This document shows positions 1,365-61,702 of a stretch of DNA of 64,000 nt, in pieces. The stretch is taken from contig VGJO01000001.1 in assembly GCA_016867415.1 (NCBI GenBank), positions 80,052 through 144,051 of the forward strand, given 5' to 3'. The position numbers were made by a program, and so were the translations under genes. Each line of letters begins with the position of its first letter. Position 1 is the first letter of the stretch. The DNA is from Candidatus Harrisonbacteria bacterium. GTDB lineage: Bacteria; Patescibacteriota; Minisyncoccia; UBA6257; UBA11618. The notes below the pieces were generated by a model. It did not search any database and had not been told where the DNA came from. It saw only the letters and a list, made by a program, of their open reading frames with translations.

Positions 1365-2347
1365 TATAAAAGTCCAATTACTCTCTTCACTTCCCGTATT
1401 TTTTTATCCGCTATCTTTCTCGCTTTTTCCTCTCCTGCCTGAAATATTTCCTCTACCTGTTTTTGCTTATGACCCCATTCTCCTTTTGCTTCACGGTAAA
1501 GGAGAAGGGCGTTGCTAATAGTTTCGGCCGCCATTTTTTTAAAATCCCCATAACTCATCCCCGCCGCTTCTTTTTCGAGTGTTATAATCTCTTTTTGAGT
1601 AAGCCCCGAAAGAATAGTGAGAAGATTGCTAATTCCCGGTTTCTTTTCCTCGTCGTAGCGAATTTCTCGATCCGAATCTGTTACCGCTTTCCCTACTTTA
1701 TCGTGAATAATCTCCGGCGTGTCATCGATAAAAAGACACCCGCCCGGCAGTGACTTGCTCATCTTTCGTGTCGGATCATCGAGACTCATGACTCTTGTGG
1801 CTTGAGTCATCAGTGCCTTCGGTTCTATAAATAATTGTCCAAACCGATTATTAAATCGTCGGGCCAAGTCCCGCGTGAGCTCTAGGTGCTGTACCTGGTC
1901 CTCACCTACCGGCACCACCTCGGTGTCATAGAGGAGAATATCCGCCGCCATGAGGACCGGATAGGTAAAAAGAGCCGAGTTAATATTTTCCTCCTGTCGA
2001 CTCACCTTGTCTTTGTACTGCGTCATTCGCGACAGCTCGCCAAAGTAGGTGATGGTTGAGAGGAGCCAATAGAGCTCCGACTGTTCACTAATCCGGGATT
2101 GTCGAAAAAGCGTAGATCGGAGAGGGTCAAGTCCGGCCGCGAGAAAGGTGGTCATGAGATCCATAATTTCCGCCCGTTTCTCTTCTGGCGTGTAGCTCTG
2201 CGTGAGTGAATGCAGATCTGCTACCATAAACAAACATTCATGATTTGCCTCCTCCTGCAGTTGGACGAAATTAGTCAGTGCCCCTAAATAATTCCCTATA
2301 TGCAGTCTCCCCGTCGGCTGTATCCCCGACAACACCCTATACTTCAT
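1364..2347 (-). CDS. trpS: tryptophanyl-tRNA synthetase
   Basis: QPTGRLHIGNYLGA (HIGH-like) and KMSKS motifs. Start chosen at MKYRVLSG (ATG 2345-2347, GAAGG 7 nt upstream). The ORF track extends to 2518, but that N-extension has no TrpRS-like sequence. Confidence 0.85.
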   Translation of the reverse strand: MKYRVLSGIQPTGRLHIGNYLGALTNFVQLQEEANHECLFMVADLHSLTQSYTPEEKRAEIMDLMTTFLAAGLDPLRSTLFRQSRISEQSELYWLLSTITYFGELSRMTQYKDKVSRQEENINSALFTYPVLMAADILLYDTEVVPVGEDQVQHLELTRDLARRFNNRFGQLFIEPKALMTQATRVMSLDDPTRKMSKSLPGGCLFIDDTPEIIHDKVGKAVTDSDREIRYDEEKKPGISNLLTILSGLTQKEIITLEKEAAGMSYGDFKKMAAETISNALLLYREAKGEWGHKQKQVEEIFQAGEEKARKIADKKIREVKRVIGLL

Positions 2348-2607
2348 ACAATTACCTTCGATTGTATCAACTATCCCCTCCATCATCAAATAAGGATTTT
2401 TCTCTGGCATTACGAAGTTCATAAGATGCCCTCCTCCTCGCGCAGAATTTTTGTCCCTATGACGAGGAGAAAGCAAGTATTGCGAGGAGGCATACATAAT
2501 CGGTATGTTGACGAGCAAAAGGAGCTTTCGACAATGTCAGAGGGAAAAAAGACAAGCGCTTAAAAAAACCAAAAGTAAAAGTTATTTTTTGATTGAGTTA
2601 ATTAAGC

Positions 2608-4687: not shown

Positions 4688-6373
4688 TCATTTTTGAAAA
4701 ACTCTTGCTGTTTTTTGATACCAATCCGCTACCCGAGAAAATCGTTCCCGTGGTTCCTGAATAAAGAAGGAAAGTGAAGGAATGGTGCTTTTATTCATAA
4801 AGTAGTAGAAATCTGGGGAAAAGAGAAAGAGTACCGGCAAGTCTTTTTGAATATTTTCTTGGACTTGCTTGAGTTTTTCCTCTCGTCGCTTTTCGTTTGT
4901 ATCATTTTTAAGTGAGGTAAGAAGCGTATCTACCTGTGGATTACTATAGAGAGCCAGGTTTGATCCTGGATGCACTCTATTATCCGAATGAAAGAAAGGG
5001 AGAAGATCAGGATTTTTTCTCATCTCTATTCCATAGAGCAGTGCCTCGTACTCTCTTGGTTTTATTATCTCCGCAAGTATCTTCTGAGATTCGATCGGCC
5101 GCAAGGCCACTTCAAAGCCAATTGCTTGATAATTCTTTGCAAGGAGCTCTACTGTTTCTTTCAGGAATCCTATTTCCGGGTAGGTAATAGTGAGTTGTAA
5201 GCGTGTAAGCGTCTTACCTTCTACTTTCATTCTGCCATTTTTTTCGTCCTTTTTAAAGCCCGCTTCATCAAGGAGTTTGTTGGCTTGCTCAAGAGAAAAT
5301 TCCTGCTTTTCCAAACCTTTCAAAAAACCTTTTACATTTGCCCCGATCGGTCCCACGCTTACTCGCGCTGAATTCTGGAAAATCTTTTCAACAATTTCTT
5401 CTCTGTTTGTTGCAAATAATAATGCCTTCCGTACATTCACATTTTGTAGGACCGGATTTTTTACCTGATTAAAAAAGAGCGCAAATGATCGCGGCATCGT
5501 GATAGCAAAACTTTCTTGATCAACGGTAATTTCTTTTTCTGCTTGCGGGTTATAAGTTCCATAGCCATCAATCTCTCGTCGCTGGAAAGCGGCAATTGCC
5601 TCCATCTCACTTGTGTAATATCGGAAAGAAAAATCAGTGATATTTGGCTTTCGCTCTGCAAATGCCTTATTAACTGCAAGCCTCACCTCTTTGATGAAGC
5701 CATCCTTTTCAGTAACCACCTCTTTTACTGTGTATGGGCCATAACCGATAGGGGAAAGATTATAGCTTGATAGCCGGAGATTAGGTACCGGAATACTTTC
5801 AAAGACATGCGCTGGGGCTACTCGTAAATCCTGGAGAATCTCAAGAAAATATGGTTTAGTAGTCCCGAGACTAAAACGTGCTTCATCCTCATTAATTTTT
5901 TCTACTGCCACATTATGCCACCGGCTTCGTTCCGTATGATTTGCGTCTGGATTTTGCATCGTCTTCACGGTAAAGATGAGATCTTTAGCGGTGATCGGCG
6001 CCCCATCAGAAAATCTTGCTCCTTTCTTAAGTTTTACTAAATAATTTTTTCCATTTTCTGAAATATCAATCGTCTCCGTGATAGTCGAAAGTCCAGGAAA
6101 GATGATTTCAATAAGATCTCGATCCGCTTGAGCCCCACTCCCTAAAAGGGGATTAATAAATACTGGTTGTCCCACCACTCCCTCAGTAAAACTCCCTCCC
6201 TCTCGTGGGGCTTCATAAGTAATATGAAAATATCCGGAGATAAGAATAAAGAGGAGTGCTAAGATAGCCGTCACTCCCGTCCCAAAGATCACCCTACGCT
6301 CGAGTGGGGTGAGGTGTCGCATTGTTGTAGAAAGGAGATGAAACACGTTGAGAAAAGAAGTTCGCCTCTGCAA
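4688..6373 (-). CDS. ABC transporter substrate-binding protein, family 5 (peptide/nickel type), membrane-anchored
   Basis: N-terminal TM helix and size and motifs of SBP_bac_5 (ARFSDGAPITAKDL...). An alternative start at MRHLTPLE is possible. Confidence 0.55.
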   Translation of the reverse strand: MQRRTSFLNVFHLLSTTMRHLTPLERRVIFGTGVTAILALLFILISGYFHITYEAPREGGSFTEGVVGQPVFINPLLGSGAQADRDLIEIIFPGLSTITETIDISENGKNYLVKLKKGARFSDGAPITAKDLIFTVKTMQNPDANHTERSRWHNVAVEKINEDEARFSLGTTKPYFLEILQDLRVAPAHVFESIPVPNLRLSSYNLSPIGYGPYTVKEVVTEKDGFIKEVRLAVNKAFAERKPNITDFSFRYYTSEMEAIAAFQRREIDGYGTYNPQAEKEITVDQESFAITMPRSFALFFNQVKNPVLQNVNVRKALLFATNREEIVEKIFQNSARVSVGPIGANVKGFLKGLEKQEFSLEQANKLLDEAGFKKDEKNGRMKVEGKTLTRLQLTITYPEIGFLKETVELLAKNYQAIGFEVALRPIESQKILAEIIKPREYEALLYGIEMRKNPDLLPFFHSDNRVHPGSNLALYSNPQVDTLLTSLKNDTNEKRREEKLKQVQENIQKDLPVLFLFSPDFYYFMNKSTIPSLSFFIQEPRERFSRVADWYQKTARVFQK

Positions 6374-6976: not shown

Positions 6977-7035
6977 AGCTAACTAATTATAATTCATTAA
7001 AAATAATTTTTTTTATATTGTATCTTAAAGGCCTA

Positions 7036-7156
7036 AGCGAAGTAGTTTTGAGCTTAGTTTCGTTCTTCTTTTTGAAAGTAAACTAAGAGCTACTAGGAAA
7101 GTCTATGAAGATTTTCCGGAGAAAAAAATAATGAAAATAAGGCAAAAGCATGAGCG
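7036..7156 (+). repeat. copy of dispersed structured intergenic repeat (divergent copy)
   Basis: agcgaagtagttttgag...ggagaaaaaaataatgaaaat...aaaagcatgagcg aligns with the family consensus. Confidence 0.55.
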
Positions 7157-7447
7157 CTACTCAAGTAATCTTGCAACACGCTCTAATTCTTGCTCAACTA
7201 AAGAACTATCATAATCCCCACTATGTACTGACGCCCCCTCATAGCTTGGTCGCTTCTGATCCAGGTGAAGAGAAAGAAAAAGTTTCCCTTCGGCCACCCG
7301 CGTATACATATGAAACTTCGGATACTCCATTCTGGAGAGTCGTCGCACGAAGCTCGTCTCCGCCCCTTTCTGCCTGTCATAGGCATACCCCGCCCGCCGC
7401 ATAAACACCTGCAAATTTTCTCGAAAACCCTCCACCATCTTTTTCAT
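7157..7447 (-). CDS. hypothetical protein
   Basis: 96-aa ORF with non-repetitive composition, in tandem with gpmI. No recognisable motif. Confidence 0.35.
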   Translation of the reverse strand: MKKMVEGFRENLQVFMRRAGYAYDRQKGAETSFVRRLSRMEYPKFHMYTRVAEGKLFLSLHLDQKRPSYEGASVHSGDYDSSLVEQELERVARLLE

Positions 7448-9217: not shown

Positions 9218-9329
9218 TTTACTCTTGACTACCTACTATCTTCTTAAACCGAGTCATTACTTCTATTATAGTTTCTATTATATTATGTAGTAAGGAAGGC
9301 TTGATTTCACTAATACCCAATAAAAAGCA

Positions 9330-9412
9330 CAGGATTTTTCGAGGAAATTTTGTTTTTTCTTGTGAGTAAGCGCCGGAGCATACTAAAAATAAGCTCGTAG
9401 ACACCTAATACT
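9330..9412 (+). repeat. copy (5'-truncated subtype) of dispersed structured repeat
   Basis: caggatttttcgagga...gcgccggagcatactaaaaataagctcgtagac aligns with the 22118-22253 copy. Confidence 0.5.
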
Positions 9413-9540
9413 CTCAATTCTCTAAGGGCTATAGATCCTAGGTATTCTCCGGGAAATAAAAAAATAGAAAGTTATCGAAAAAGACCAGCTCTTAATTGAT
9501 AGAAAAAATCGTTAATATCAAATGTCTATTTTTAACTACT

Positions 9541-11096: not shown

Positions 11097-11227
11097 TTGC
11101 GCTCTCCACGCGAAGTAATCTTAGATAGAGTCTACGATTTATTTTTGAGGAAAGGCCTGGAGCATACTAAGAGCTGGGCATATGAGGACTTTCTGGAGAA
11201 AAAACGGGAAAATTCGCCAAAAAGAAA
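11097..11227 (+). repeat. copy of dispersed structured intergenic repeat
   Basis: cacgcgaagtaatcttag...tacgatttattttt-gagga...ggagcatactaag...ggagaaaaaacgggaaaattcgccaaaaag. Confidence 0.6.
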
Positions 11228-11232
11228 AGCTT

Positions 11233-11265
11233 TCTAGTAAATAAAAAATCCGAGAAAATTTCTCT
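11233..11265. terminator. bidirectional intrinsic terminator between rny and HU gene
   Basis: Stem tccgaga/tctcgga (7 bp, loop aaattt), flanked by an A-run upstream and a T-run downstream. Confidence 0.7.
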
Positions 11266-11286
11266 CGGATTTTTTATTTACTAGAT

Positions 11287-13991: not shown

Positions 13992-14345
13992 ATGAAAAAA
14001 ACACCTTTATTAAATCAAGCTGGAGGTAACACTATCTTCTGGGTAGTCTTTGGCGTCCTCGTCATTGGTCTCGTCCTCATCTCATCCTCAAAACCATTAA
14101 TTAATCCTCAAGCAGAGGGATTTCCTGTTTCCACAGATCTAGAAAATTTTGTTTCACTTAATCCAGAAGATTGCCCAGAGGAACCTCTATTAGAAGCCAC
14201 TCCTGATCCTGCTGGTTCTGCTGGTTCTGCTGGTCCTGCTGCTGGTTCTGCTGCTGGTTCTGCTGGTTCTGCTGCTGGTTCTGCTGGTCCTGCTGCTGGT
14301 CCTGCTGCTGGTCCTGCTGAGATGGAGCTCCTCCGCCTCCCCTAA
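13992..14345 (+). CDS. small membrane-anchored protein with (A)GSAG(P) tandem repeat tail
   Basis: ATG with TM segment. C-terminal region encoded by gctggttct/gctggtcct tandem repeats. Confidence 0.5.
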   Translation: MKKTPLLNQAGGNTIFWVVFGVLVIGLVLISSSKPLINPQAEGFPVSTDLENFVSLNPEDCPEEPLLEATPDPAGSAGSAGPAAGSAAGSAGSAAGSAGPAAGPAAGPAEMELLRLP

Positions 14346-15597: not shown

Positions 15598-15701
15598 AAA
15601 TATCTTTCCGCCCGAAAAAAAAATAAGGTACAATAAAACCACACCTGTTTTTTATTTTTACAAAAAGAAATTAAAAAATAATAGAAGTAAATAATTCATA
15701 A

Positions 15702-15795
15702 AAGCGAAGTTATTTTGAGCTTAGTCCTTATCTAGATTCAGCATTTCGATAGCGCAGAAAAAATGAAGAAAATTCACCAAAATACAAACCCATAA
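15702..15795 (+). repeat. short/divergent copy of dispersed structured repeat
   Basis: aaagcgaagttattttgagcttagt...gcgcagaaaaaatgaagaaaattcaccaaaa. Same 5' end as the 7036 copy. Confidence 0.45.
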
Positions 15796-15811
15796 TTTTC
15801 AGAAAATATAT

Positions 15812-22117: not shown

Positions 22118-22253
22118 CGCCACGAAAGCGCAGGATTTTTGAGAAGAGTTTGGATTTTCTTTGTGAGCAGCGAACGGAGCATACTAGAACTTGAGTATGT
22201 GAGTACGAGACGCAGCAAAAAAATCAAGATCTTCTAAAAAATACAAGCTTATT
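22118..22253 (+). repeat. copy of dispersed structured intergenic repeat, ending 4 nt before the cysteine desulfurase start
   Basis: cgccacgaaagcgcaggatttttgag...gaacggagcatactagaacttgagtatgtgagtacgag...caaaaaaatcaag...acaagctt. Confidence 0.6.
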
Positions 22254-22256
22254 AAT

Positions 22257-23489
22257 ATGGAAAAGAGAATCTATCTAGACTACGCCTCCTCCACCCCCCT
22301 CGACCCCCAAGTGTTGTCTGCCATGCAGCCTTATTTTTATAAGCTCTTCGGCAATCCCGGCTCTACCCACCGTGAAGGCCAAATCGCCTTCGCCGCCCTT
22401 GCTGAAGCACGCGAGATGATCTCTCTCGCTCTTGGCGCCGAGTGGAAAAACACCCTCTTTCTTCCCTCCGCGACCGAAGCCAATAATTTCATCCTCCGTG
22501 GCGCTCTATCGGTCTGGGGAAAGTCTCATCCTGGCATAATTCCCGAATATATCATTTCTCCCCTTGAGCACCCCTCGCTCATTGCTACTGCTAAGGATCT
22601 TGCGAGGGAAGGAAAAATTATTCTTCATTTTCTTAAAGTTACTGAAGCCGGTATTGTGGATTTTACCTCGCTCTCCCCCCTCCTTTCTCCTCGCACCTGC
22701 CTCATCGCTGTCCAAAGCGCCAACAGCGAGCTTGGTACCCTCCAGCCTATTCAAGAAATCGCCACTCTCATATCTTCTTATAAAGAATCTAAAAAAAATA
22801 ATAGTCATTCCGGACTTAGCACACCTCGCTCTAAGCGGGATCCGGAATCTATAAAAAATAATTCTTACCCGCTTTTTCACATCGACGCGGTCCAGTCTTT
22901 CCAATATTTCCCCATCACCCTTGCCGAATCCGGCGCGGATTCTATTATCATCTCTTCGCATAAGCTCTATGGTCCCAAAGGCGCTGCCGCGCTTTCTCTC
23001 AAAAATTCTTCTCTCTCCTCTCCTCTTCTTTTTGGCGACACTCGGGAATCCGGCCTTCGCTCCGGTACAGAAAATGTTCCATCTATAGTCGGTTTTGGTA
23101 AAGCCGTTGAACTTGCGGAAAAAAATCGGGCTAAGGAATCAAAAAGAATAAAAATTCTCCGAGATTTCCTTTGGGAAGGCCTTGCAAAAATCTATCCTCA
23201 TATAAAACTGAATGGAGACTTAGAACGCCGCCTGCCACATAATCTAAGCGTCTATTTTCCCGGCACCCCTTCAACCGATTTTATGATTGAGCTTGATATG
23301 CAAGGTATTGCCGTCTCCGCCGGCACTGCCTGCTCCGCTCGCGCTCTTACTCCGTCTCCTGTCCTTGAGATCCTTTATCCCGATTCCGACCGTCCCTATT
23401 CTTCCCTCCGCTTCACTCTTGGCCGACCAACCAAAAAATCCGACCTCGTAAGCGTCCTCAAAATCCTCAAAAACCGCAGGCCGAAATAA
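22257..23489 (+). CDS. cysteine desulfurase (class V aminotransferase, IscS/NifS family) with an internal low-complexity insertion
   Basis: N-terminal YLDYASSTP, SSHKLYGPKG (PLP-Lys), GTACSAR near the C-terminus. Confidence 0.8.
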   Translation: MEKRIYLDYASSTPLDPQVLSAMQPYFYKLFGNPGSTHREGQIAFAALAEAREMISLALGAEWKNTLFLPSATEANNFILRGALSVWGKSHPGIIPEYIISPLEHPSLIATAKDLAREGKIILHFLKVTEAGIVDFTSLSPLLSPRTCLIAVQSANSELGTLQPIQEIATLISSYKESKKNNSHSGLSTPRSKRDPESIKNNSYPLFHIDAVQSFQYFPITLAESGADSIIISSHKLYGPKGAAALSLKNSSLSSPLLFGDTRESGLRSGTENVPSIVGFGKAVELAEKNRAKESKRIKILRDFLWEGLAKIYPHIKLNGDLERRLPHNLSVYFPGTPSTDFMIELDMQGIAVSAGTACSARALTPSPVLEILYPDSDRPYSSLRFTLGRPTKKSDLVSVLKILKNRRPK

Positions 23490-23566
23490 TTTACTGTTTT
23501 TTTCTATTTGGCCGAAGGCCACGTGAGAAATTATGCAATCATAATTTATTTTGCGTCATAAAAAAT

Positions 23567-23590
23567 CCCCCACTCCGTACGGAGTGGGGG
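23567..23590 (-). terminator. hairpin with U-tract only on the minus strand
   Basis: Perfect palindrome cccccactccgtacggagtggggg. A-runs on the + strand on both sides, so the T-run follows it only when read on the minus strand. Confidence 0.4.
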
Positions 23591-24054
23591 AAAAAAGAAG
23601 TCAGAGAATAATAAGCCACTTTATCAAACATTATTATTTCTCTGGTCAAAGAAGAAAGCGCAGAAAAACCCTCCTAATTTTCACCTGATTCTCTTTCCAC
23701 GCTCAAAAAAGAAAGGTAAGGAAGAGGCGGAGTATTCTCTCACCCTTTGATATTTCCTTACCTTAATTTTAAAGAAGAGAGTGAAGAATTGTCCATTTTT
23801 TTCAATCCCAGCATCCTCCACTCTCAAATGCAAAGTTTTCAATGAATAACTATTATATACCATATAAATATATAGGAGTCAAAAAAATAAAAATCAATAA
23901 TGTTAATATATATGTATAAGCTAGATTTAAGAAGATTTTATTAAAAAATACTCGCTCTGCAAAAGCGCATAATTTTTGGACGAGTCTCCACTGGCAATTA
24001 GCTCTCTTAAACTAAAAAATAAAAGAATTAGTAAAAAAGAACTAAAATGAGCTA

Positions 24055-24170
24055 GATCAGCGAGGCTCCCCATTTCTTTTCGAGGAGCTACCGGAGCATA
24101 CTAAGGGAAGTCTGTAAGGAGATACCGCAGGAAAAAACGGGAAAATTCGCCAAAAAGACAAGCTTTTCAC
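24055..24170 (+). repeat. copy of dispersed structured intergenic repeat (5'-short)
   Basis: atttcttttcgaggagctaccggagcatactaagggaagtctgtaagg...ggaaaaaacgggaaaattcgccaaaaagacaagctt. Confidence 0.55.
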
Positions 24171-24442
24171 ATGAAGACAAAACCCACGCGCCCTTTTTTA
24201 TATTTCTAATATTTGAAGCCGAGATAAAAAATATACAGTTTGTAAAAATATAAATAATAAAGATCTAGTAATTCGTTTAAATGCAGAGAATGAAGTAAGA
24301 GAAAAGTTATTCTGCGAACCAGAAGCATCAATAAATACCAAGCCCTGTTACCCAACCCCGATTCGATTAACTAATCGAAAAAGAAAAGACAGAAAATCAT
24401 TTTCCCCTGTCTTTTCTTAAGTGATAAAACCAATTCCCTTCA

Positions 24443-24471
24443 TTGACTTTTGATATAAATTTTGCTAATGT
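24443..24471 (+). promoter_or_regulatory. sigma70-type promoter (TTGACT-17-TAATGT) upstream of clpB leader
   Basis: TTGACT 24443-24448, 17-nt spacer, TAATGT 24466-24471. The predicted transcript would carry the 24604-24723 repeat as a 5' leader. Confidence 0.45.
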
Positions 24472-24603
24472 ACATATACATTCAGACCTGAAAGTTTTTG
24501 AAGAAATGGACAAAAAAAGTAATACTAAATTAGTCTCTTAGAATTTTTCTTTTACATCTTATTTTACGTAAAAGCATAGGATATAAAGTCTTAGCACAAG
24601 CGT

Positions 24604-24723
24604 AAGCGAAGTAATTTTGGAGGGTATTTCGATTTTTCTTGAGAGTACGGGGCGGAGCATGCTAGGAAAGTCTGTGAGCACCGAACGGAACAAAAAATCG
24701 AAATGCACCCAAAAGTACGAGCG
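24604..24723 (+). repeat. copy of dispersed structured intergenic repeat, ending 10 nt before clpB ATG
   Basis: agcgaagtaattttggagggtatttcgattttt...ggagcatgctagg...caaaaaatcgaaatgcacccaaaagtacgagcg, with a compensatory tttcgattt/aaatcgaaa pair. Confidence 0.6.
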
Positions 24724-24733
24724 TAAAACACTA

Positions 24734-27391
24734 ATGAAACAGTTTAATAGGTTCACAATTAAAGCCCAAGAAGCCCTCCAAAATTCCCAAGACCTCGCCT
24801 CTCTTCGCAATCACGGCGAGTTTAAAGCCGTTCATCTTCTTCATAGTTTAATTCAGGATTCTCAATCCCTCGTTCAGCCAATGCTTGTGAAAGTCAGCGT
24901 TAATCTTGATCAACTTTTCGAAGAGCTTGAAGCTGAATTGGGTCGCATGCCCAAAATTTTTTCTGGTGGCAATACTGGCCAACTCTATCTCTCCCAAGAA
25001 ATTATTCAGATTCTCGATCGGGCCGGTAAAATCGCTCTCGCTCAAAAAGATGAGTTTGTGAGCTGCGAGCACCTTCTTTTGAGTATCCTCGATACCCGTT
25101 CGAGCGCGAAGGAAATCTTAGAGTCTTTCGGAGTGAAGCGCGATCCGCTTATTCGCGTTTTAGAAAAACTTCGCGGCTCTAATCGAGTCGTCGACGAGAC
25201 TCCTGAGAGTAAATTTCAGGTACTTGAAAAGTATGGCATCAATCTTACCGAGCGGGCCAAACAAGGAAAGCTTGATCCGGTCATCGGTCGCGACGATGAA
25301 GTTCGGCGCTTGATTCAAGTGCTTTCCCGCCGCACGAAAAATAATCCAGTCTTAATCGGCGAACCTGGTGTGGGAAAGACTGCGATAATCGAAGGCTTAG
25401 CCCAACGCATTATCTCCGGAGATGTTCCTGAAACACTTCGCGCGAAAGAAATTATTTCGCTGGATCTTGGCGCTCTTATTGCTGGCACGAAATTTCGCGG
25501 TGAATTTGAAGATCGGCTTAAGGCTTTTATGAAGGAGATTAAAAACAGCGATGGCCGCTTCATTCTTTTTATCGATGAGCTTCACATGATCGTCGGTGCC
25601 GGTGCCGCCGAAGGTGCCATCGACGCTTCCAATCTTTTAAAACCTTCTCTTGCTCGAGGTGAACTTCGCGCTATTGGTGCTACTACACTCCGGGAATATC
25701 AGAAACATATTGAAAAAGACCCTGCCCTGGAGCGCCGCTTCCAGCCTATCTTGGTAGAAGAGCCTTCTATTGAGGATGCGCTCGCTATTCTTCGTGGTCT
25801 TAAAGAAAAATATGAAATTCATCATGGTATTCGGATCAGTGATGAAGCCTTAGTTGCCTCGGTCAATCTTTCTGCTCGCTACATTACTGATCGTTTTCTC
25901 CCTGATAAGGCCGTAGATCTGATGGATGAAGCCGCTGCCGCTCGGCGTCTTGAATCCGAAAGTATTCCTCGTGAAATAGATCGCTTCCGTCGGGATATTA
26001 TGCGTCTCGAGATCGAGCAAAAAGCCTTGGAAAAAGAGCAGGAGGAAGTCTCCGGTACTGGTAAAGTAAAAGTAAAAAAGCGATTAGAAGAGATTAAGAG
26101 TGAGCTTTCCGCTCTTAAGGAAAAAAATGATGGCCTCTCTGCTAAGTGGCATAAGGAAAAGATCGCCTTTGAAAATCTTCACAAGCTTCGCCGGCGCGAG
26201 GATGATCTTCGCCGCGAAGCCGAAATTGCCGAACGTGATGGTAATCTCACTCGGGTCGCCGAGATCCTTTATGGCGAGCTTCCCGCCGCTCAAAAAGAAT
26301 ACAAAGATTTTGAAAAGAAATACTTCTCAAAAGGGAAGGCTACTAGTACCTCTGAAAAATTTCTCAAAGACGCTGTTGATGAGGAAGATGTGGCTGCGGT
26401 TGTTTCTCGTTGGACCGGAATCCCCGTTTCTCGCATGCTTGAGTCCGAAGCCGTTAAGCTCACTCGCCTTGAGGACGTCCTAAGTAAGCGCGTAGTGGGT
26501 CAGGAGACTGCTGTGACAGCCGTCGCTAATGCCCTCCGCCGGTCTCGAGCAGGCCTTGCTGATATGAGTCGTCCCCTTGGATCCTTTATGTTCTTAGGAC
26601 CTACCGGTGTTGGCAAGACGGAGCTTGCCAAAGCTTTGGCCGAATTCATGTTTAATGACGAAAAAGCCTTGATCCGCATTGATATGTCTGAATACATGGA
26701 GCGTCACGCCGTCTCTCGCCTTATTGGTTCGCCTCCTGGGTATGTTGGTCATGATGAAGGAGGGCAGCTCACTGAGATTATTCGTCATCGTCCCTATAGC
26801 ATCATTCTTTTCGATGAGATTGAGAAAGCTCATCCTGAAGTCTTTAATATTCTCTTGCAGGCTCTTGATAATGGCCGTCTCACCGACAGTAAGGGTAAGA
26901 CCGTCAATCTTAAAAACTGCGTAATTATTTTGACTAGCAACGTTGGGAGTCATCATTTTAAGGAGATTTCCCGCCTTGGCTTCAAGACCGAAGAAGGGGA
27001 AAATCTCGAAGCTAAGGAAAAAGATTTTCGTTCTCGCGTCATGGACGCTTTGAAGGATCAATTCCGTCCCGAGTTCTTAAATCGGCTCGACGAAATAATC
27101 ACCTTCAACGCCTTAAATCGCAATGTGATCGAAAAAATAGTTGAGATTCAACTCGAGAAGGTAAAAGAGCGGCTTGCCGAGCGAAGTATCCGGCTTAAGA
27201 TTGATGATTCTGCCAAAAAGTATATTGTCGAGCATGGTTTTGATCCTGATTATGGTGTCCGTCCGATTAAGCGCTTGATTCAAAAAGTGATTCTTGATCC
27301 GATGGCCGACAAGATTATAAAAGGCGAATTGAAAGACGGCGATGAAGCGAAGGTTAGCTTTAAGAAGTCCTTACTTACTGTTAGCGTGTAA
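24734..27391 (+). CDS. clpB: chaperone ClpB (AAA+ disaggregase)
   Basis: N-domain [15 protein letters not shown], two Walker A boxes ([16 protein letters not shown]), middle coiled-coil. The ORF-track start at 24617 is a read-through of the repeat. Confidence 0.88.
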
Positions 27392-28073
27392 GGCAGTTAT
27401 TGTAGGAATTGGAGCGGGGAGTGCCTTTGGGGACTCCCTTTTCCTTAAGGCTATCTTTTTTTTATTCTCTGCTCTCTTTTTCTTTTTTCCTACTATCCAG
27501 ACTCTTCCTTACTTCTGGAGCTGGCTTTTTCTCCTCAATCTTGTTTTTTGGAACGGATCCTTGGGGCTTTCCAATATTTTCACTCCTTTTTCTTTTGGTG
27601 TTTTTTTCGCCATTCTCTCTTTCGTGCATCTCGGCAGTAAAGATCTTATTTTTATCCGGCATAAAGAGCTTCATGTCATCCTCTGTCTTTTCCTTGTTTT
27701 TCTCTCCTTGCTTTTCTTAATGAATATTACCTCTCCCGCTTTCTTCTTGGAAAAAATATTTCTTGTTTTTCTTTCTTCTTTCTTTCTTATCCGGGAGTTT
27801 CTCTATGGTTATATAAAAAATTCCCGTTCTCGCATCGTCGCCCTTGTCCTCTCCCTCCTTTTGAGTGAGCTCTCTCTTTTCATTTCTTGGCTCCCCCTCT
27901 CTCCGCTCCGCTCCGCTCTCCTTATCTTTACCCCTCTCCTTTTCTTCCTTTATCTTCTCATGAAAAGCGAACGAGGTGGCAATTCTTTGAAAACCATCTC
28001 TCTCTCCGCCGATTTCTTCTTTTTCTTCCTTGTCATCACAGGCATCCTCCTCTCCTCCTACATCTTCCAATAG
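27342..28073 (+). CDS. hypothetical Phe/Leu-rich polytopic membrane protein (start uncertain; overlaps clpB end)
   Basis: Long hydrophobic ORF. Only in-frame ATG lies 50 nt inside clpB. Low-complexity T-rich DNA, so could be spurious. Confidence 0.3.
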   Translation: MKRRLALRSPYLLLACKAVIVGIGAGSAFGDSLFLKAIFFLFSALFFFFPTIQTLPYFWSWLFLLNLVFWNGSLGLSNIFTPFSFGVFFAILSFVHLGSKDLIFIRHKELHVILCLFLVFLSLLFLMNITSPAFFLEKIFLVFLSSFFLIREFLYGYIKNSRSRIVALVLSLLLSELSLFISWLPLSPLRSALLIFTPLLFFLYLLMKSERGGNSLKTISLSADFFFFFLVITGILLSSYIFQ

Positions 28074-28897: not shown

Positions 28898-28980
28898 TAA
28901 AAAGTTAAGATTCTTACTCTATTTAGTAAAAATGTATGAACGTCGGCTTTCTAGGAAATTATAAAACTTCGCATTACACC

Positions 28981-29158
28981 ACGCGAAGTAATTTTGAGTC
29001 GAGTTTACGATTTATTTCTGAGGACAAGCCCGGGAGCACTACTAAGAAAAAGGTATGTCGAAGGTATGGAGTACTCTCCGTACCGGAGATCTCGAGTGCT
29101 CTCGAGGTGAAGGACTTACCGGAAGAAAAAATCGCAAAATTGGCCAAAAGTACGAGCG
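28981..29158 (+). repeat. long variant (with ~55-nt internal insertion) of dispersed structured repeat
   Basis: acgcgaagtaattttgagtcgagtttacgattt...gggagcactactaag + insertion ggtatggagtactctccgtacc / ctcgagtgctctcgag + ggaagaaaaaatcgcaaaattggccaaaagtacgagcg. Confidence 0.6.
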
Positions 29159-29163
29159 CCTTA

Positions 29164-31035
29164 TCAGATGGATAGGTCGGGTCGGAGTAATTGCAACTTA
29201 CTCCTCAATCTTCCCAATTCCTTCTGATCCCCCTCCTCCATCGCAATCCGTGCCTGAATCTGGATAAATTCAATGCGAGTAGGCGAATAATCTTCCCCTG
29301 TTTTAGCAAGTGCTTTTGCTTTCTCACTATATTGCGGATTTTTTGTCGCTTCAAATGCCGCCATGTAGAGCAAGTTGTATATATAGTGATTTTTTATACC
29401 TGGATAGATCGTGGGCTCATACCATTTGTCCGCCATCCCTAGTACTCGGTTCATGAAGTTAGGATCTCGAGGAAGCGCCGGGTTTTCCTTTTGAGCCATT
29501 TGAATCGCATTTTGCAAAAAGAGGAAGAGACTACTTTCTAGCTCTGACTGCCCTACTACCGACTTATATTGCAATGCCTTCTCATAGTCATTCAGCGCTT
29601 GGTCTAAATTTTTCGCATTATAGACCGCCGATGTGATAAGGAGGACATTTTTTCGATAAATAGTGTAAGTGAGACCAAATCCAGTAAGGAGTAATAAGAC
29701 AATGACTGCCTGCCCTCCTGCTCGCGTAAAAGTTAGTTGTTTTCTTTGCGTCATAAGCTTAGAAAGAGCTGTTTCCTCAAGAAAGCCGGCGGTGTTTGCT
29801 GTGTAAAAAGCCAGGAAGAGAAAAAGCATGAGATACGTTGGCAAGATGGCAAAGATAGTCAGTCCCTGGATGATAAACATAAGCGGCATGATAAGAAAAA
29901 TAATCCGCCATATTCCCGAAGGAATCTTTTTTAAGCTCATATAGTAGGCGATAAAGATTCCAATATAAGCAAGAAGGAGAAGGATTCCCCCATTCATTAA
30001 TTCGTCAATAAAGATATTATGAGCCCGATCAAACCATGACTCTCTTCCAAAGTGATTGGGATTATAATACATATCAAAGACCGAAGGGAAACTCTCCGCT
30101 CCATACCCCAAAAGTGGTCGTTCTAAAAATCCTTGGTACGCTGATCCCCAGGTCCAAAAACGAGTATTAAATGCTTCTAGAATATTTCCTCCCTTTTCTG
30201 CTGAAACAAGAAAAAGTGAGCCAAAAGTAATAAAGCTAATAAGAAGGACTAAAAACGCATAGAAAAAAGTCTTTGCTTTTTTATTAAGCTTCTCGAAGTA
30301 ATAGAGATGAAGGTGGGGGATGAGAAGCAAGAGTCCGACTACGCCGCCAATTCCCACTGCCCCCAAAGCCGCTGTCGTCTTTGATCGGTAAAAAACGAAG
30401 ATCGCCCAAAGAGTGTACCAGGCAAGCATAGTCCAGGTTTTCACCGATTTTGTATTCTGACTCATCCAATAAAGGTAAAAGAAGATAAATATCATATAGC
30501 CTCCAAGATACGAGGCATTTCCTAATGTTCCTGCTACCTGTGAGGCACTTCCAATGAAAAAACTAGGTGCTATACCGAAAGCCTGCGCGGTCGCATAGAG
30601 CATCACATAGAGAGTCTCAATAAGGAGAAATGAGATGAGCCATTTCCAATGCTGTTTCGTTGTATAGGTGGAGATAAGAAGCACGTAAAAAGTCACATAG
30701 TGAATGATTTGAAATCCCCCTTCCGCCCGTTCAAAGTTAGACCAAAAAGAAAAACCTGGGTTGATTCCAGTAAGTGAAGTAAGGACATAAAAAAATGCAT
30801 ATGCAAGAACTGCGATCGAGACCGGATGCCTCAACCGTTCTTTGATGACTGTCCAGTACCCCGGATTATAAATGAGATAACTCAAGAGGCAAAAAAGGGC
30901 GATTTCCACCATCGATCGGAAATAGAGCGCCTTTCCGGTAATAAAGGGGAAGTACAAACCTCGGGTAACAAGGAGAAATGAAAGAAGTGCCGCCCCGGTA
31001 AAAATCCGCGCCGCTCTGATAAAAAAAGTATTCAT
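29164..31035 (-). CDS. Wzy_C (O-antigen ligase/PglL-like) polytopic membrane protein with C-terminal TPR-like domain
   Basis: About 11 TM segments, YNPNHFGRESWFDRAHNIFIDELMNGGILLLLAY loop motif typical of the Wzy_C family. C-terminal soluble helical repeats. Confidence 0.7.
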   Translation of the reverse strand: MNTFFIRAARIFTGAALLSFLLVTRGLYFPFITGKALYFRSMVEIALFCLLSYLIYNPGYWTVIKERLRHPVSIAVLAYAFFYVLTSLTGINPGFSFWSNFERAEGGFQIIHYVTFYVLLISTYTTKQHWKWLISFLLIETLYVMLYATAQAFGIAPSFFIGSASQVAGTLGNASYLGGYMIFIFFYLYWMSQNTKSVKTWTMLAWYTLWAIFVFYRSKTTAALGAVGIGGVVGLLLLIPHLHLYYFEKLNKKAKTFFYAFLVLLISFITFGSLFLVSAEKGGNILEAFNTRFWTWGSAYQGFLERPLLGYGAESFPSVFDMYYNPNHFGRESWFDRAHNIFIDELMNGGILLLLAYIGIFIAYYMSLKKIPSGIWRIIFLIMPLMFIIQGLTIFAILPTYLMLFLFLAFYTANTAGFLEETALSKLMTQRKQLTFTRAGGQAVIVLLLLTGFGLTYTIYRKNVLLITSAVYNAKNLDQALNDYEKALQYKSVVGQSELESSLFLFLQNAIQMAQKENPALPRDPNFMNRVLGMADKWYEPTIYPGIKNHYIYNLLYMAAFEATKNPQYSEKAKALAKTGEDYSPTRIEFIQIQARIAMEEGDQKELGRLRSKLQLLRPDLSI

Positions 31036-35904: not shown

Positions 35905-35934
35905 AAAAATCCCCCTCCCGGGGGATTTTTGTTT
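35905..35934 (+). terminator. intrinsic terminator
   Basis: aaaaatccccc tccc gggggattttt: 7-bp stem with A/T flanks. Confidence 0.75.
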
Positions 35935-36021
35935 TATAACAGTAAGTCCTGTACTTAATCAAAAAAAAATGTTTTAATCTAATATTCCTAATACTTAATT
36001 TTTAAAGATTTTGCCCGTCGC

Positions 36022-36197
36022 CACGCGAAGTAATTTTGGATGGAGTTTGTGATTTCTTTCCGAGGAGCCGCCGCAACGTATAAATAAAAGGTATGTCGAA
36101 GGTACTTAGTACTCTAATACCGGAGATCTCGAGTACTCTCGAGGTGAAGAAGCTAGCACAGAAAAAACTGCGAAAATTCGCCAAAAAACAAGCTTAT
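36022..36197 (+). repeat. long variant (with internal insertion) of dispersed structured repeat, ending 3 nt before GT4 start
   Basis: ccacgcgaagtaattttggatggagtttgtgatttc... + insertion ggtacttagtactctaatacc / ctcgagtactctcgag + ...gaaaaaactgcgaaaattcgccaaaaaacaagctt. Confidence 0.6.
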
Positions 36198-36200
36198 ACC

Positions 36201-37385
36201 ATGAATAAAAAGATGAGTAAAAAAGTTTTATTAATAATTACGCAACCCACCTGGGGCGGCGCCCAACGCCATGTCTTTGATCTCGCTCTTGGCCTAAAAG
36301 AGGAAGGTTTCAAGGTGGTGGTAGGGACAGGGAAACCCAAGTCTTCTGCTAAAGAAGACTCTCTTCTCATCGAAAAGTTAAGAGAAAAAGAAATCACCAC
36401 TCAAATCTTTTCTCATCTCACCCGTCCTATTAGACCCCTTTCAGACATTCGCGCTATTTTCGAAATCTTTTCTTTCCTCCAAAAAAATAAAATAAATATT
36501 CTCCATCTCCATAGTTCGAAGGCCGGGGTGGTGGGAGCGGTGGCCGGCTTTCTTGCTCGCACCCCTCGCCGTCTTTTTACCGCTCACGGCTTAGTGCTGA
36601 ATGAGCCTCTTCCCCGGTATCTTCATGGTCTCTATTACATCCTTGAATGGATTAGCTTCCGCCTCTCGCATCACATCATTACCGTCTCTGATTTCGACCG
36701 TCATATTGCGCTAAAAAGTCGTCTCACTTCTCCTCTTAAAATCTCCACAATCTGGAACGGCATTGATCAAAAAGTATTTACCTCTTCACTCTTACCTAAA
36801 GAGACTGCTCGAAGAAAAATTCTCTCTCTCTTTCCCCACTCCATAGATGAAAAAAACTTCATTATCGGAACCATCGCTCATTTCTACAAGAATAAGGGCC
36901 TCTCTTTTTTAGTTTCCGCGGCCGAGATCGTGGTAAAAAGTTTCCCGCAAGCCCACTTTGTCATTATAGGGAGTGAAGGTTCGGAGCGCGCTTCTATTGA
37001 GCAAAAAATAAAAGAGTGCTCACTTGAAAAAAACATTCACTTGCTAGGTTTCATAGAAAATCCCGAATCATTATTAAATAGTTTTGACCTCTATGTTTCC
37101 TCATCTCTCAAAGAAGGCCTTCCATACTCCTTAATCTCAGCTCTTTCTGCGGAAGTACCAATAGTGGCTACTCAGGTTGGTGGCTGTTCTGAAATTATTA
37201 TTAATGAAGAAAATGGACTCCTTGTCCCTCCTGCCGACGCACCTGTTCTTGCTTCTGCTATTAGCCGCTTCCTAATCTCTCCTCACCTAAAAGAAAAAAC
37301 AAGAGAAAATAATAAAGTCCGCTCCTCGCTCTTCTCCCTTTTTGAAATGATTGATAAAACTATCGCAATCTACGATAATCGCTAG
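36201..37385 (+). CDS. glycosyltransferase family 4 (GT-B)
   Basis: EGLPYSLISALSAEVPIVATQVGGCSEII..ENGLLV (E-x7-E motif region). The ORF-track N-extension from 36093 is translated repeat sequence. Confidence 0.8.
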   Translation: MNKKMSKKVLLIITQPTWGGAQRHVFDLALGLKEEGFKVVVGTGKPKSSAKEDSLLIEKLREKEITTQIFSHLTRPIRPLSDIRAIFEIFSFLQKNKINILHLHSSKAGVVGAVAGFLARTPRRLFTAHGLVLNEPLPRYLHGLYYILEWISFRLSHHIITVSDFDRHIALKSRLTSPLKISTIWNGIDQKVFTSSLLPKETARRKILSLFPHSIDEKNFIIGTIAHFYKNKGLSFLVSAAEIVVKSFPQAHFVIIGSEGSERASIEQKIKECSLEKNIHLLGFIENPESLLNSFDLYVSSSLKEGLPYSLISALSAEVPIVATQVGGCSEIIINEENGLLVPPADAPVLASAISRFLISPHLKEKTRENNKVRSSLFSLFEMIDKTIAIYDNR

Positions 37386-44021: not shown

Positions 44022-44025
44022 TGCA

Positions 44026-44148
44026 AAGCGAAGTAATTTTGGATGGAGTTTGCGATTTCTTTTCGAGGACAAGCCCGGAGCATACTGGGCTCAAGTATGT
44101 GAGGACTTACCGGAGAAAAAAATCGCAAAATTCGCCAAAAGTACGAGC
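44026..44148 (+). repeat. canonical copy of dispersed structured intergenic repeat, ending 11 nt before ATP-grasp gene ATG
   Basis: gcgaagtaattttggatggagtttgcgatttcttttcgaggacaagcccggagcatact gggctca agtatgtgaggacttaccggagaaaaaaatcgcaaaattcgccaaaagtacgagc. Confidence 0.65.
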
Positions 44149-44159
44149 ATAAATAATAT

Positions 44160-47715: not shown

Positions 47716-47747
47716 AAATATCATAAGTAGGTAATCGTCCTCAGTTC

Positions 47748-47870
47748 CGCGAAGTAATTTTGGATGGAGTTTGCGATTTCTTTTCGAGGACAAGCCCGGA
47801 GCATACTAAAGGAAGTATGTGAGGACTTACCGGAGAAAAAAATCGCAAAATCCGCCAAAAGTACGAGCGC
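47748..47870 (+). repeat. canonical copy of dispersed structured intergenic repeat in a convergent intergenic region
   Basis: Near-identical to 44026-44148 except the central loop (aaagga vs gggctca) and 2 substitutions. Confidence 0.65.
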
Positions 47871-48929
47871 CTAAGAAAAATTAAACATTACTTCATAAAT
47901 CGCTTCCGCAAGATGCTCCACACTATGCTCTCTCACAACAAGCTCCCTGAAATACTTTCTCATCTCTTCTTTTTCTATTTCCTTTAAAGAAAGAAGTGTG
48001 TCTATAGCTTTTCCAACTTGATCGGCCTTCTCGTTATTTTTTATAAAAAGATACCCCTGCCATTTCTTAGGGATAAGAGGAAGGAACGAAGGGTTAGAAG
48101 TGAGTACGAGGCATCCCGCCGCCATCGCTTCTAAGACACTTTTATCAAAAGATCCTTTCGGAGTGAAATTAAAAAGAATCTCCGCTTTCTGAAAATAAAA
48201 AGGAATAGCATTATAAGGTTTTGCCCCCAGAAAAAGCACCTCTTTTTCATTATTTCCTACAGATATCTTTTCTTTAAGGGATGATAAATACTTTCTATCT
48301 GTCTCACTCTTCGCTTCCCCAATTATCTGAAGCAATTCTGTTGCGTGCGATGCGTAGTAGCCCGTGATAATATTTTCTATTTTTTTCACATGAGTGATTC
48401 TGCCTAAAAAAAGAAGCGTGTCCCGTTTCTTTTCTGAGGGAGAGGAAAAAAGTTCAGTCTGAATCCCGTGTCCTACCGGGTATATTGGGGCTGATTGAAG
48501 TTGAAAAGTTTCTCGGGTGGAAGTAAACACTCCTTGGAGAAAAAAAGTAGAAAATCGCAAAAGAAGTCCTGGTTTGTAGCATGAAGTCTTCCAAAGGAAG
48601 ACCGGCTTATGGGTAAGTCGGAAAAACCAACCACCCAAAGCCGCATAGATTTCATTCATATGGACAAAGATCGCGTCATAATTCTTTCTTTCTTGAATGA
48701 TGAGTTGAAAGAAGCGAAAAAAAGCCTGTAATTTAGAAAAAAGTCCTCGTTCTCCCGACTTTCGGAGAGAAAAAAGCCGGACATTGATAGGGAGTGTTTC
48801 AGAAGAAGGAAAAAGACTAATGACTGTTATTTGGGAAAACTGCTTGCTAAAAGCCTGGACCAGGTAATAGGTATAGCCCAAGACATCATCATCTTTGTCG
48901 ATTTTTTGCGTAAAAAAGAGTATTCTCAT
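47871..48929 (-). CDS. glycosyltransferase (GT-B fold, GT4-like)
   Basis: N-terminal MRILFFTQK Rossmann start. FDKSVLEAMAAGCLVLTSN motif. Confidence 0.6.
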   Translation of the reverse strand: MRILFFTQKIDKDDDVLGYTYYLVQAFSKQFSQITVISLFPSSETLPINVRLFSLRKSGERGLFSKLQAFFRFFQLIIQERKNYDAIFVHMNEIYAALGGWFFRLTHKPVFLWKTSCYKPGLLLRFSTFFLQGVFTSTRETFQLQSAPIYPVGHGIQTELFSSPSEKKRDTLLFLGRITHVKKIENIITGYYASHATELLQIIGEAKSETDRKYLSSLKEKISVGNNEKEVLFLGAKPYNAIPFYFQKAEILFNFTPKGSFDKSVLEAMAAGCLVLTSNPSFLPLIPKKWQGYLFIKNNEKADQVGKAIDTLLSLKEIEKEEMRKYFRELVVREHSVEHLAEAIYEVMFNFS

Positions 48930-52651: not shown

Positions 52652-52672
52652 TAAAATAAAGATTAGCTTGAT

Positions 52673-53458: not shown

Positions 53459-53465
53459 TCTCTCG

Positions 53466-55590: not shown

Positions 55591-55610
55591 AATACCTATG
55601 TTTTTTCACT

Positions 55611-59824: not shown

Positions 59825-59839
59825 AATAAAGAAGATAGC

Positions 59840-60469: not shown

Positions 60470-60500
60470 TCCTCATTTCGAAGAAAAAAGGTCCTTAACT

Positions 60501-60527
60501 AGGAGGCGATGTCCGCCTCCTTTTTTT
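60501..60527 (+). terminator. intrinsic terminator
   Basis: Stem aggaggcg/cgcctcct, 5-nt loop, T7. Confidence 0.75.
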
Positions 60528-60589
60528 ATAGAAATATTTGAAAAAAAGGCAAAATTACCTATAATTAGCTTTGTTTAAAGAAAGTAGTC

Positions 60590-61690: not shown

Positions 61691-61702
61691 TTTCAGCTTT
61701 TC

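Follow-up and report, generated by a model that had tools for sequence, protein, structure and literature searches.

A dispersed ERIC/MITE-like hairpin repeat family and the lineage-specific clpB spacer of a Candidatus Harrisonbacteria bacterium

The stretch of DNA considered here, hereafter the window, corresponds to 64,000 nucleotides (nt) of Candidatus Harrisonbacteria contig VGJO01000001.1 (positions 80,052-144,051), and all coordinates below are window positions. This work addresses the intergenic spacer that precedes the chaperone gene clpB, the two copies of a hairpin repeat found in this spacer and the dispersed repeat family to which they belong. The locus comprises:
23490-24733, a spacer of 1,244 nt between a class-V aminotransferase gene (22257-23489) and clpB (24734-27391).
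24734-27391, plus strand, clpB, whose product displays the Pfam domains Clp_N, AAA, AAA_lid_9, AAA_2 and ClpB_D2-small.

All the features that an initial annotation of this DNA had listed for the spacer are present where it placed them, including the clpB ATG at 24734. The spacer is AT-rich, as it had stated (GC content of 0.339, or 0.311 without the repeats, vs 0.425 for the whole window), and carries no credible open reading frame (ORF). Indeed, the longest ORF (60 aa, minus strand, 23681-23863) has no Pfam match and retrieved only itself among 5.8 billion proteins, and six-frame fragments of the spacer, compared with the relatives in a search for protein-coding remnants, match nothing except other repeat copies. 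A Candidatus Harrisonbacteria metagenome-assembled genome (MAG) encodes a protein 100% identical to the ClpB of the window, the next relatives being 72-75% identical. These relatives have the gene order of the window, with an exonuclease gene, small ORFs, the class-V aminotransferase gene, clpB, an ORF of 230-250 aa and a DeoR-like gene. As the gap between the aminotransferase gene and clpB is only 53-91 nt in these relatives vs 1,244 nt here, the spacer is lineage-specific; it is 99.9-100% identical across other samples of the same population.

The two repeat copies noticed upstream of clpB are real, their core pattern occurring twice vs 0 expected and their pairwise alignment showing 74% column identity, but they are not private to clpB and their boundaries had to be shifted. 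BLAST of the spacer against the window revealed further copies, and a covariance model built from six repeat copies (R1) found 12 copies in the window, all of them on the plus strand. For the two spacer copies, first delimited at 24055-24170 and 24604-24723, the model gives 24046-24171 and 24601-24730, and copy 1 actually begins at 23962. A thirteenth copy lies on the same strand just right of the window, beside a glutaredoxin gene (locus L093), and the 7.4 kb left of the window carry none, so that about 77 kb examined in total contain 13 copies, i.e. about one per 6 kb. The repeats represent 2.8% of the 64-kb window. The 12 window copies are:
2435-2565, plus strand, divergent copy (29.8 bits with R1), between minus-strand genes encoding RNase J and a class-I Trp/Tyr-type tRNA synthetase, antisense to them.
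7032-7163, plus strand, decaying copy (108 bits with R1; fold z -1.4), antisense inside a minus-strand operon (gene calls from L095).
9322-9497, plus strand, long-variant copy adjoining the start of the RNase Y gene.
11105-11238, plus strand, decaying copy (fold z 0.24) at the convergent junction of the RNase Y and HU genes.
15699-15797, plus strand, internally deleted copy, 15 nt ahead of the signal peptidase ATG.
22123-22256, plus strand, copy (fold z -3.0) adjoining the aminotransferase ATG.
23962-24171, plus strand, copy 1 of the spacer, disrupted and decaying (58 bits with R1 over 24046-24171; fold z -1.05, not significant).
24601-24730, plus strand, copy 2 of the spacer, intact (128.6 bits with R1; -38.9 kcal/mol, z -4.4).
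28978-29165, plus strand, long-variant copy with two extra apical hairpins (z -4.4), adjoining the stop of a convergent minus-strand gene and without Rfam match.
36020-36201, plus strand, long-variant copy adjoining a glycosyltransferase ATG at 36201.
44023-44156, plus strand, copy (-43.8 kcal/mol, z -5.2) filling the whole gap between a plus-strand stop at 44021 and a plus-strand ATG at 44160.
47744-47876, plus strand, copy (-47.9 kcal/mol, z -5.4) adjoining, at a convergent junction, the stop codon of a minus-strand glycosyltransferase gene.

R1 found no copy in five relatives (about 38 kb in total). When metagenomes were scanned with the 5' anchor of the repeat, 80 loci were returned, about 72 of them chance matches, and the true ones all come from Lake Tanganyika samples; five copies are on Lake Tanganyika contigs lying outside the window, and every sample of this population carries the copies. 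A scan of genome contigs with the two-copy core, in a collection that does not include the source genome, gave only two chance matches, both in coding sequences of unrelated bacteria. None of the repeats matches an Rfam 15 family at the gathering threshold (the window yields only four tRNAs), no family overlaps them at E <=10, and the long variant has no Rfam match either. Assemblies obtained independently from the same population are interrupted within copies of the repeat, and the family thus fragments MAG assemblies. Three contigs (L009, L010 and L012) start at window position 24136, and two (L075 and L010) end inside 28978-29165.

The repeat is an imperfect palindrome of about 130 nt (125-134 nt depending on the copy), with the consensus AAGCGAAGTAATTTTGGATGGAGTTTGCGATTTCTTTTCGAGGAC..CCGGAGCATACT-loop-AGTATGTGAGGACTTACCGGAGAAAAAAATCGCAAAATTCGCCAAAAGTACGAGCG and with ends, GCGAAGTAATTTTGG and CCAAAAGTACGAGC, that are terminal inverted repeats. 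Intact copies form a single long hairpin, whose apical core reads CC-GGA-GCAUAC…GUAUGU-GA-GG (GGAGCATAC...GTATGTGA in most copies) and whose unpaired core nucleotides, GGA/GA, are conserved among copies. Their predicted folds range from -39 to -48 kcal/mol (z -4.4 to -5.4), those of decayed copies having z values from about 0 to -1.4. Four copies belong to a long variant in which about 50 extra nt form two additional hairpins near the apex, one copy is internally deleted and three have no significant fold. In an alignment of 16 copies fitted to R1, 86.8% of the cells are paired vs 40-52% with slid partners, and both-side changes are found in 28 of the 37 pairs, whereas none of 500 shuffles reaches any of these measures; an independent MAFFT/RNAalifold run retrieved both-side changes in 12 of the 37 pairs. 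G-U pairs outnumber A-C mismatches (60 vs 33). As the indels between copies are not multiples of three, and as the family is multicopy and bounded by terminal inverted repeats, it is considered non-coding and similar to MITEs (transposable elements of miniature size with inverted repeats). A hammerhead or other ribozyme was rejected: CUGANGA is found in one copy only, the short form lacks a three-way junction and no Rfam family matches.

The genes adjoining the repeats are unrelated housekeeping genes, encoding RNase J, RNase Y, iPGM, HU, signal peptidase, aminotransferase, ClpB, glycosyltransferases, an ATP-grasp protein and glutaredoxin. Seven copies end 6-15 nt ahead of the ATG of a plus-strand gene, three are located at convergent junctions (two of them ending at the stop codon of the minus-strand gene), and two window copies are antisense inside minus-strand operons, as is one more in L027, a locus of the same lake population that carries two repeat copies. 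This locus also displays a 62-nt direct duplication (2091-2152/2175-2236; 98% identical, 84 nt apart). Strong G+C-rich hairpins with A- and T-runs, which resemble bidirectional terminators, occur at about 11245-11280 and 35905-35930, each within about 100 nt of a copy (11105-11238 and 36020-36201, respectively). Under random orientation, the probability that 13 copies share one strand is about 2e-4; over 77 kb, gene direction (about two thirds plus) is inseparable from replication direction. The uniform strand suggests either a strand-specific mechanism, acting on single-strand DNA, or selection for the sense orientation in transcripts.

This arrangement raises the question of whether the repeats are functional RNA modules acting in cis, maintained in the sense orientation for processing, stability or ribosome loading ahead of starts devoid of a Shine-Dalgarno sequence, rather than selfish DNA. 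Such a role would account for the seven copies located 6-15 nt before a plus-strand ATG, for an eighth that precedes a 12-codon ORF, for the single strand, for the conserved unpaired GGA/GA, for the strong covariation and for the excess of G-U over A-C. It would also fit with the lack of any Shine-Dalgarno-like sequence upstream of the 45 ORF starts in the window (0/45), whose upstream sequences are simply A/T-rich, and with the presence of copies beside the RNase Y and RNase J genes themselves. However, the antisense copies in minus-strand operons (two in the window, one in L027), the three or four copies at convergent gene ends, the several decayed, split or deleted copies, the absence of the repeat from relatives and the lack of any function shared by the adjoining genes all argue against it, and we consider this explanation unlikely.

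Even less likely, and indeed very improbable, is that the repeats form a multicopy family of small RNA genes, each of them transcribed independently. The hairpins are stable and an A/T-rich box resembling a -10 is often found about 17-25 nt upstream, but the flanks carry no conserved promoter or terminator and no U-tract follows the hairpin. The upstream flanks show no conservation, and inspection by eye of the 3' arm of the repeat revealed no usable -35/-10. Furthermore, one copy fills the gap between two co-directional genes, its 5' flank lying inside the upstream coding sequence. Integron attC sites, such as Vibrio cholerae repeats (VCRs), which would be recombination sites marking cassettes, are likewise imperfect palindromes of similar length found in a single orientation. 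Nevertheless, the genes between the repeats are housekeeping genes whose order is shared with repeat-free relatives, the repeats lack RYYYAAC/GTTRRRY ends and no integrase was seen; with these defining features failing, this extremely improbable reading was rejected.

Copy 1 of the spacer differs from the other copies by a nested insertion:
23990-24060, plus strand, a 71-nt hairpin-forming insertion interrupting the 5' arm of copy 1, with a 9-nt direct repeat (CGAGTCTCC/CGAGGCTCC) on either side.
The 5' end of the family aligns with the anchor AAGCGCATAATTTTTGG found at 23963 in this copy. No other example of the insertion occurs in the window; its ends are inverted (CTGG..TAGCTC / GAGCTA..CAG), and it resembles a second, tiny insertion element. 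The ATG at 24171 that follows the copy begins an ORF of only 12 codons. Copy 1 would be the relic of an earlier insertion, later split by the 71-nt one.

Copy 2 lies between clpB and its putative promoter:
24443-24471, plus strand, clpB promoter candidate TTGACT-17-TAATGT, with TG one base before the -10, aligned with the clpB promoters of relatives.
The aligned promoters are TTGACT-17-TAGAAT in L001 and TTGACC-17-TAAAAT in L097, the ATG of these relatives being 10-22 nt after the -10. The sigma70-like promoter first proposed, and described as strong, is found where expected, but its -10, TAATGT, agrees with the consensus at only 3 of 6 positions, which is why a consensus promoter scan left it unlisted. 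Its alignment with the clpB promoters of relatives nonetheless makes it credible, and it is probably the clpB promoter. This alignment also places copy 2 between the ancestral promoter and the ATG, the conserved 3' end of this copy, GAGCG, stopping 10 nt before the clpB ATG. Comparison with the clpB upstream regions of related genomes shows a promoter that is kept but a repeat that is absent, in gaps of the short size given above. The repeat-containing leader of about 260 nt put forward initially is probably correct: we infer a clpB leader of about 255 nt containing the stable hairpin of copy 2 (about -39 kcal/mol). The spacer would have gained about 950 nt ahead of the ancestral promoter and about 250 nt from there to the ATG.

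It had been proposed that, if clpB is heat-regulated, this leader would be a thermosensor or a processing site. The half-site TTAGCAC, resembling that of the controlling inverted repeat of chaperone expression (CIRCE), does occur at 24591-24597 and, as reported, lacks its partner: a search for CIRCE (TTAGCACTC-N9-GAGTGCTAA) that allowed up to 3 mismatches retrieved none in the window. A CIRCE split by insertion of the repeat was rejected, GAGCGTAAA after copy 2 being the repeat's own conserved end. The check for a CIRCE, HrcA or CtsR system gave no CIRCE in the window and neither HrcA nor CtsR among the neighbouring proteins tested. In the relative L004, a canonical CIRCE (TTGGCACTC-N9-GAGTGCTAA, about 2803-2829) is found about 170 nt upstream of clpB. 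RNA thermometers such as ROSE and fourU, and the CIRCE/HrcA system, share with the spacer a position 5' of a chaperone gene and, for CIRCE, the TTAGCAC half-site, but the spacer has no Rfam match, no pairing of a Shine-Dalgarno sequence or AUG within the repeat and no CIRCE, and the repeat also precedes genes that are not heat-shock genes.

One feature of copy 2 is nevertheless specific to clpB:
24613-24624, plus strand, AAUUUUGGAGGG in the 5' arm of copy 2, a perfect 12-nt complement to clpB codons 14-17 (24774-24785).
The leader might thus act as a clpB-specific thermosensor or translational switch, in which the 5' arm of copy 2 would pair either with the 3' arm of that copy or with codons 14-17, enclosing the AUG in a long-range helix that would open when hot. 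When the 322-nt leader plus early coding region is folded, the predicted minimum-energy structure includes this pairing, and the duplex between copy 2 and clpB reaches -26.6 kcal/mol (z -4.2) vs -15.5 for shuffles, none of 200 reaching it. It outranks every other partner among 4,840 sliding stretches of 130 nt from the window, none of the 15 other copies tested has a comparable duplex partner, and copy 2 carries GGAGGG in place of the family consensus GGATGGAG. However, the pairing was noticed post hoc, in one of 16 copies tested, and may be due to chance: three other window loci reach -25.2 to -25.6 kcal/mol, and the complementary codons (GCC CTC CAA AAT TCC) are C-rich like the surrounding coding sequence, as judged by eye. 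Moreover, no Rfam thermometer family matches at E <=10, clpB has no leader at all in the relatives, the copy 2 hairpin ends 10 nt before the AUG and excludes it, the AUG itself is unpaired, and the genome has no Shine-Dalgarno sequence to mask. As the same repeat adjoins unrelated housekeeping genes and is absent from relatives, a dedicated clpB heat sensor is unlikely; the proposal of a thermosensor or processing site specific to clpB is not supported, and the switch in particular seems quite improbable.

The spacer contains other structures besides the repeats:
23566-23591, minus strand, intrinsic terminator consisting of a perfect 13+13 palindrome (-23.9 kcal/mol, z -6), with a U-tract on the minus strand only.
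23556-23760, minus strand, candidate structured small RNA of about 200 nt (-68.3 kcal/mol, z -4.24; 0 of 200 shuffles as stable).
24381-24418, both strands, A/U-rich hairpin of 12-16 bp upstream of the clpB promoter (plus strand -14.9 kcal/mol, z -5.1; minus strand -18.4 kcal/mol, z -4.0).
The palindrome that the initial annotation placed at 23567-23590, with a U-tract on the minus strand only, is confirmed; its stem is perfect, G+C-rich and 11-13 bp long, and a weak Rfam match to 'NsiR1' corresponds to this terminator alone. The small RNAs suggested for the spacer find partial support in the minus-strand candidate, which ends with this strong terminator and is preceded by a promoter-like TGGACA-18-TAAAAT (minus strand, 23795 to 23766; 10 of 12 consensus matches). 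Neither homologues nor an Rfam match were found for this RNA, which is a predicted candidate and is overlapped by the 60-aa ORF mentioned above. The embedded terminator-like hairpin noted at about 24386-24417 is present (arms AAAGACAG at 24385-24392 and CTGTCTTT at 24407-24414) and significant on both strands, but it is more stable on the minus strand, the only one on which a terminator scan flags it.

Among known repeats, the closest to the window family are the ERIC/IRU elements. A 44-mer from the ERIC-PCR primer region is found in all 5,426 of 5,426 Escherichia coli genomes, and a full-length E. coli ERIC folds as a hairpin of 127 nt, whose apex reads CAG-GA-GCUUAC-AUAA-GUAAGU-GA-CUG and at whose base (A)UA-A-UUCGAG... 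is paired with ...CUUGAA-G-UAU-GA. Both families consist of a single long imperfect hairpin (125-134 nt vs 127), are intergenic and multicopy, include internal insertion and deletion variants and often lie inside transcription units. Furthermore, their apices are alike (CAG-GA-GCnUAC-loop-GUAnGU-GA-CUG in ERIC vs CC-GGA-GCAUAC-loop-GUAUGU-GA-GG in the window), as are their bases ((A/G)UA-A-UU... paired with ...AA-G-UA(U/C)-GA). Eight ERIC copies, whose core is GGAGC[T/G/A]TA[C/G]...[G/C]TA[A/C/T]GTGA, covary at the same position as the window repeat (e.g. GGAGCATAG...CTATGTGA). The two families differ in their hosts, a bacterium of the candidate phyla radiation (CPR, Patescibacteria) in one case and Enterobacteriaceae and Vibrionaceae in the other, and in that every window copy lies on one strand. 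ERIC has TA termini and a TA target-site duplication (PMC2229807, Table 1); the flanks of the window repeats are often TAA or TA, without consistent duplication, in intergenic DNA that is 69% A+T, and GTAA flanks copy 2 on both sides.

Covariance models agree with this resemblance, but weakly. A model built from ERIC only (R2), run without filters over 56 kb, ranked window copies 1, 2 and 4, on the correct strand, with 12-15 bits and E-values of 0.03-0.23; the best match is the copy at 47744-47876, ranks 1 and 4 are collinear with the model, and rank 2, which is copy 2, is in a shifted register. A model combining ERIC with elements of the phage contig L172 described below (R3) gave a single window match, the family member at 2435-2565, with the same coordinates as R1 and an E-value of 0.94. 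Conversely, R1 does not detect ERIC. On balance, we lean towards a common ancestry of the window repeats and ERIC.

Two other classes of repeats are less similar. REPINs consist of two inverted REP short palindromes and are linked to a RAYT transposase gene (PMC3116915). Like the window repeats, they are intergenic long hairpins of about 100 nt that show lineage-specific bursts and are predicted to fold as single-stranded DNA or mRNA. Unlike them, the window repeats are most conserved at the apex rather than at flanking REPs and carry no GTAG or CGTC tag. The REPIN reading was rejected: the ends of the window repeat are not palindromic alone, and no RAYT or Y1 transposase domain was seen in the 77 kb. 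As for Correia/NEMIS, RUP and other MITEs, they are also small non-coding elements with terminal inverted repeats, co-transcribed as hairpins near gene starts, and can alter the expression of neighbouring genes. The window family differs from them by the lack of sequence similarity, of a demonstrable target-site duplication and of a known parent insertion sequence, and by its uniform orientation.

The apical core is not restricted to bacterial repeats. A scan of viral contigs (IMG/VR) with this core identified P22-like phage contigs of 58-61% GC in which it caps a hairpin of about 130 nt; as these elements were found by a pattern taken from the window repeat, the identity of their cores is partly due to selection. 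The apical module is identical or covarying (CCGGAGC[AU/GU/UU]AC...GU[AU/AC/AA]GUGAGG), and the hairpins, about 125-140 nt long, have z values down to -6 (-6.1 in L103). The loci, on phage and prophage contigs, are L103 (10827-10958), L105 (about 870-996), L104 (about 14033-14167), L149, L148, L172, L147 and L115/L127/L138. In L103 and L105, whose portal proteins are only 46% identical, the element adjoins the stop of the portal gene, in antisense. The arms of L104 and L105 show many compensatory differences and resemble the window arms (ACCGGnGAnAAA..ATnCGCAAAATT) outside the search pattern (p 0.001-0.03). A looser pattern that permits covariation added about ten distinct cores with perfect covariation (AT/AT, GT/AC, TT/AA), each within a hairpin comprising 30-51 pairs, on contigs whose GC content is 0.34-0.62, and one phage contig carries two copies.

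Compared with the window repeats, the phage hairpins share the apical module and the length and, in L103, the position at a convergent gene stop, as for three or four window copies; they differ by their GC-rich arms, by the presence of only one or two copies per contig and by their portal-stop position (L103, L105). R2 detects phage elements with the window-type core (L172, E 1e-6; L147, E 0.005), but ERIC-based models, R2 included, match none of the loci L103-L105 at E <=1. The GC-rich contig L172 carries two elements, at 1692-1824 (plus strand) and 6088-6218 (minus strand), with E-values of 1e-6 and 1e-3 with the ERIC-only model; they are ERIC-like, far outside the enterobacterial base composition. 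The phage element has no Rfam match, BLAST against GenBank phages gave no match, and these hairpins are apparently undescribed. It is tempting, although rather doubtful, to see the window repeats, ERIC and the phage or prophage hairpins (GC 0.34-0.62) as one old superfamily, with covarying arms and a near-invariant apex, (C)C-GGA-GCnUAC-loop-GUAnGU-GA-GG, that would dock a widespread partner; phages would carry its members between phyla and, at clpB, the repeat would have been co-opted into a leader able to pair with the coding region. This partner would be either a strand-specific mobilising enzyme acting on single-stranded DNA hairpins or an RNA-binding or processing factor.

Globally, the spacer is probably a lineage-specific expansion around two copies of a non-autonomous ERIC/MITE-like hairpin repeat that has recently multiplied in the population, with a generic effect on clpB. 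An ancestral gap of about 55-90 nt would have been expanded in this lineage by insertion of the repeat between the clpB promoter and the ATG, giving copy 2, the spacer growing further with the older copy, the nested 71-nt insertion and the minus-strand RNA unit. The clpB gene would now be transcribed with the leader of about 255 nt that carries the copy 2 hairpin. Yersinia ERIC elements are co-transcribed and change mRNA stability in an orientation-dependent manner, the orientation of ERIC mattering for its effect on transcripts (PMC2229807). By analogy, the window repeat may have a generic effect on mRNA stability, processing or ribosome access at clpB and at other genes, and would not be a dedicated heat sensor.

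Several observations weigh against this expansion by a MITE-like element. No transposase or mobilising gene was seen in the 77 kb, no consistent target-site duplication was found, the flanks being merely TA/TAA-rich, and the relatives devoid of any copy are too diverged for exact empty sites to be recognized. The copies adjoin gene boundaries far more regularly by their 3' ends than by their 5' ends; together with the single strand, this regular abutment hints at a function or a special mechanism, because random MITE insertion predicts neither. The invariant apex shared with phage elements is also unexplained by simple random insertion, and the excess of G-U pairs is a mild sign that folding is specific to the plus strand. 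The link to ERIC has marginal E-values (0.03-0.23 with R2, 0.94 with R3), and the ERIC arms have no significant similarity to the window arms (p about 0.4). Lastly, promoter, leader and co-transcription are all deduced from sequence.

Beyond the repeats, an ORF located downstream of clpB (27342-28073), whose product has no Pfam or NCBIfam match, overlaps the clpB 3' end by 50 nt, and an overlap of clpB with the downstream ORF (about 55 nt) is kept in the relatives L001-L003 and L098. In L004, whose ClpB is 72% identical, three small ORFs, of which two contain CxxC pairs, are located between the aminotransferase gene and clpB. The right part of the window (52000-64000) and positions 1-6000 of L093 form a low-GC block (0.30-0.36 vs 0.43) of surface-polysaccharide genes encoding a flippase, methyltransferases, glycosyltransferases, an epimerase and a sugar transferase, where the GC skew changes sign; this block is probably a laterally acquired glycan cluster.

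Genomes of CPR bacteria are small and streamlined, and the full-text literature searched contains no description of a dispersed palindromic repeat family in this group. The repeats described here are a new ERIC/MITE-like family in a CPR bacterium and, as they represent 2.8% of 64 kb and immediately adjoin the start and stop codons of housekeeping genes, probably shape the structure of mRNAs across the genome. For annotation, long "non-coding" gaps and recurrent contig breaks in CPR MAGs can stem from such repeats, and a repeat upstream of a stress gene should not be taken as a dedicated regulator. If the link between these repeats, ERIC and the phage hairpins is true, ERIC would not be an enterobacterial curiosity but part of a cross-phylum, phage-borne class with a conserved apex, which would provide a comparative handle on the 35-year-old question of its function or of what moves it.

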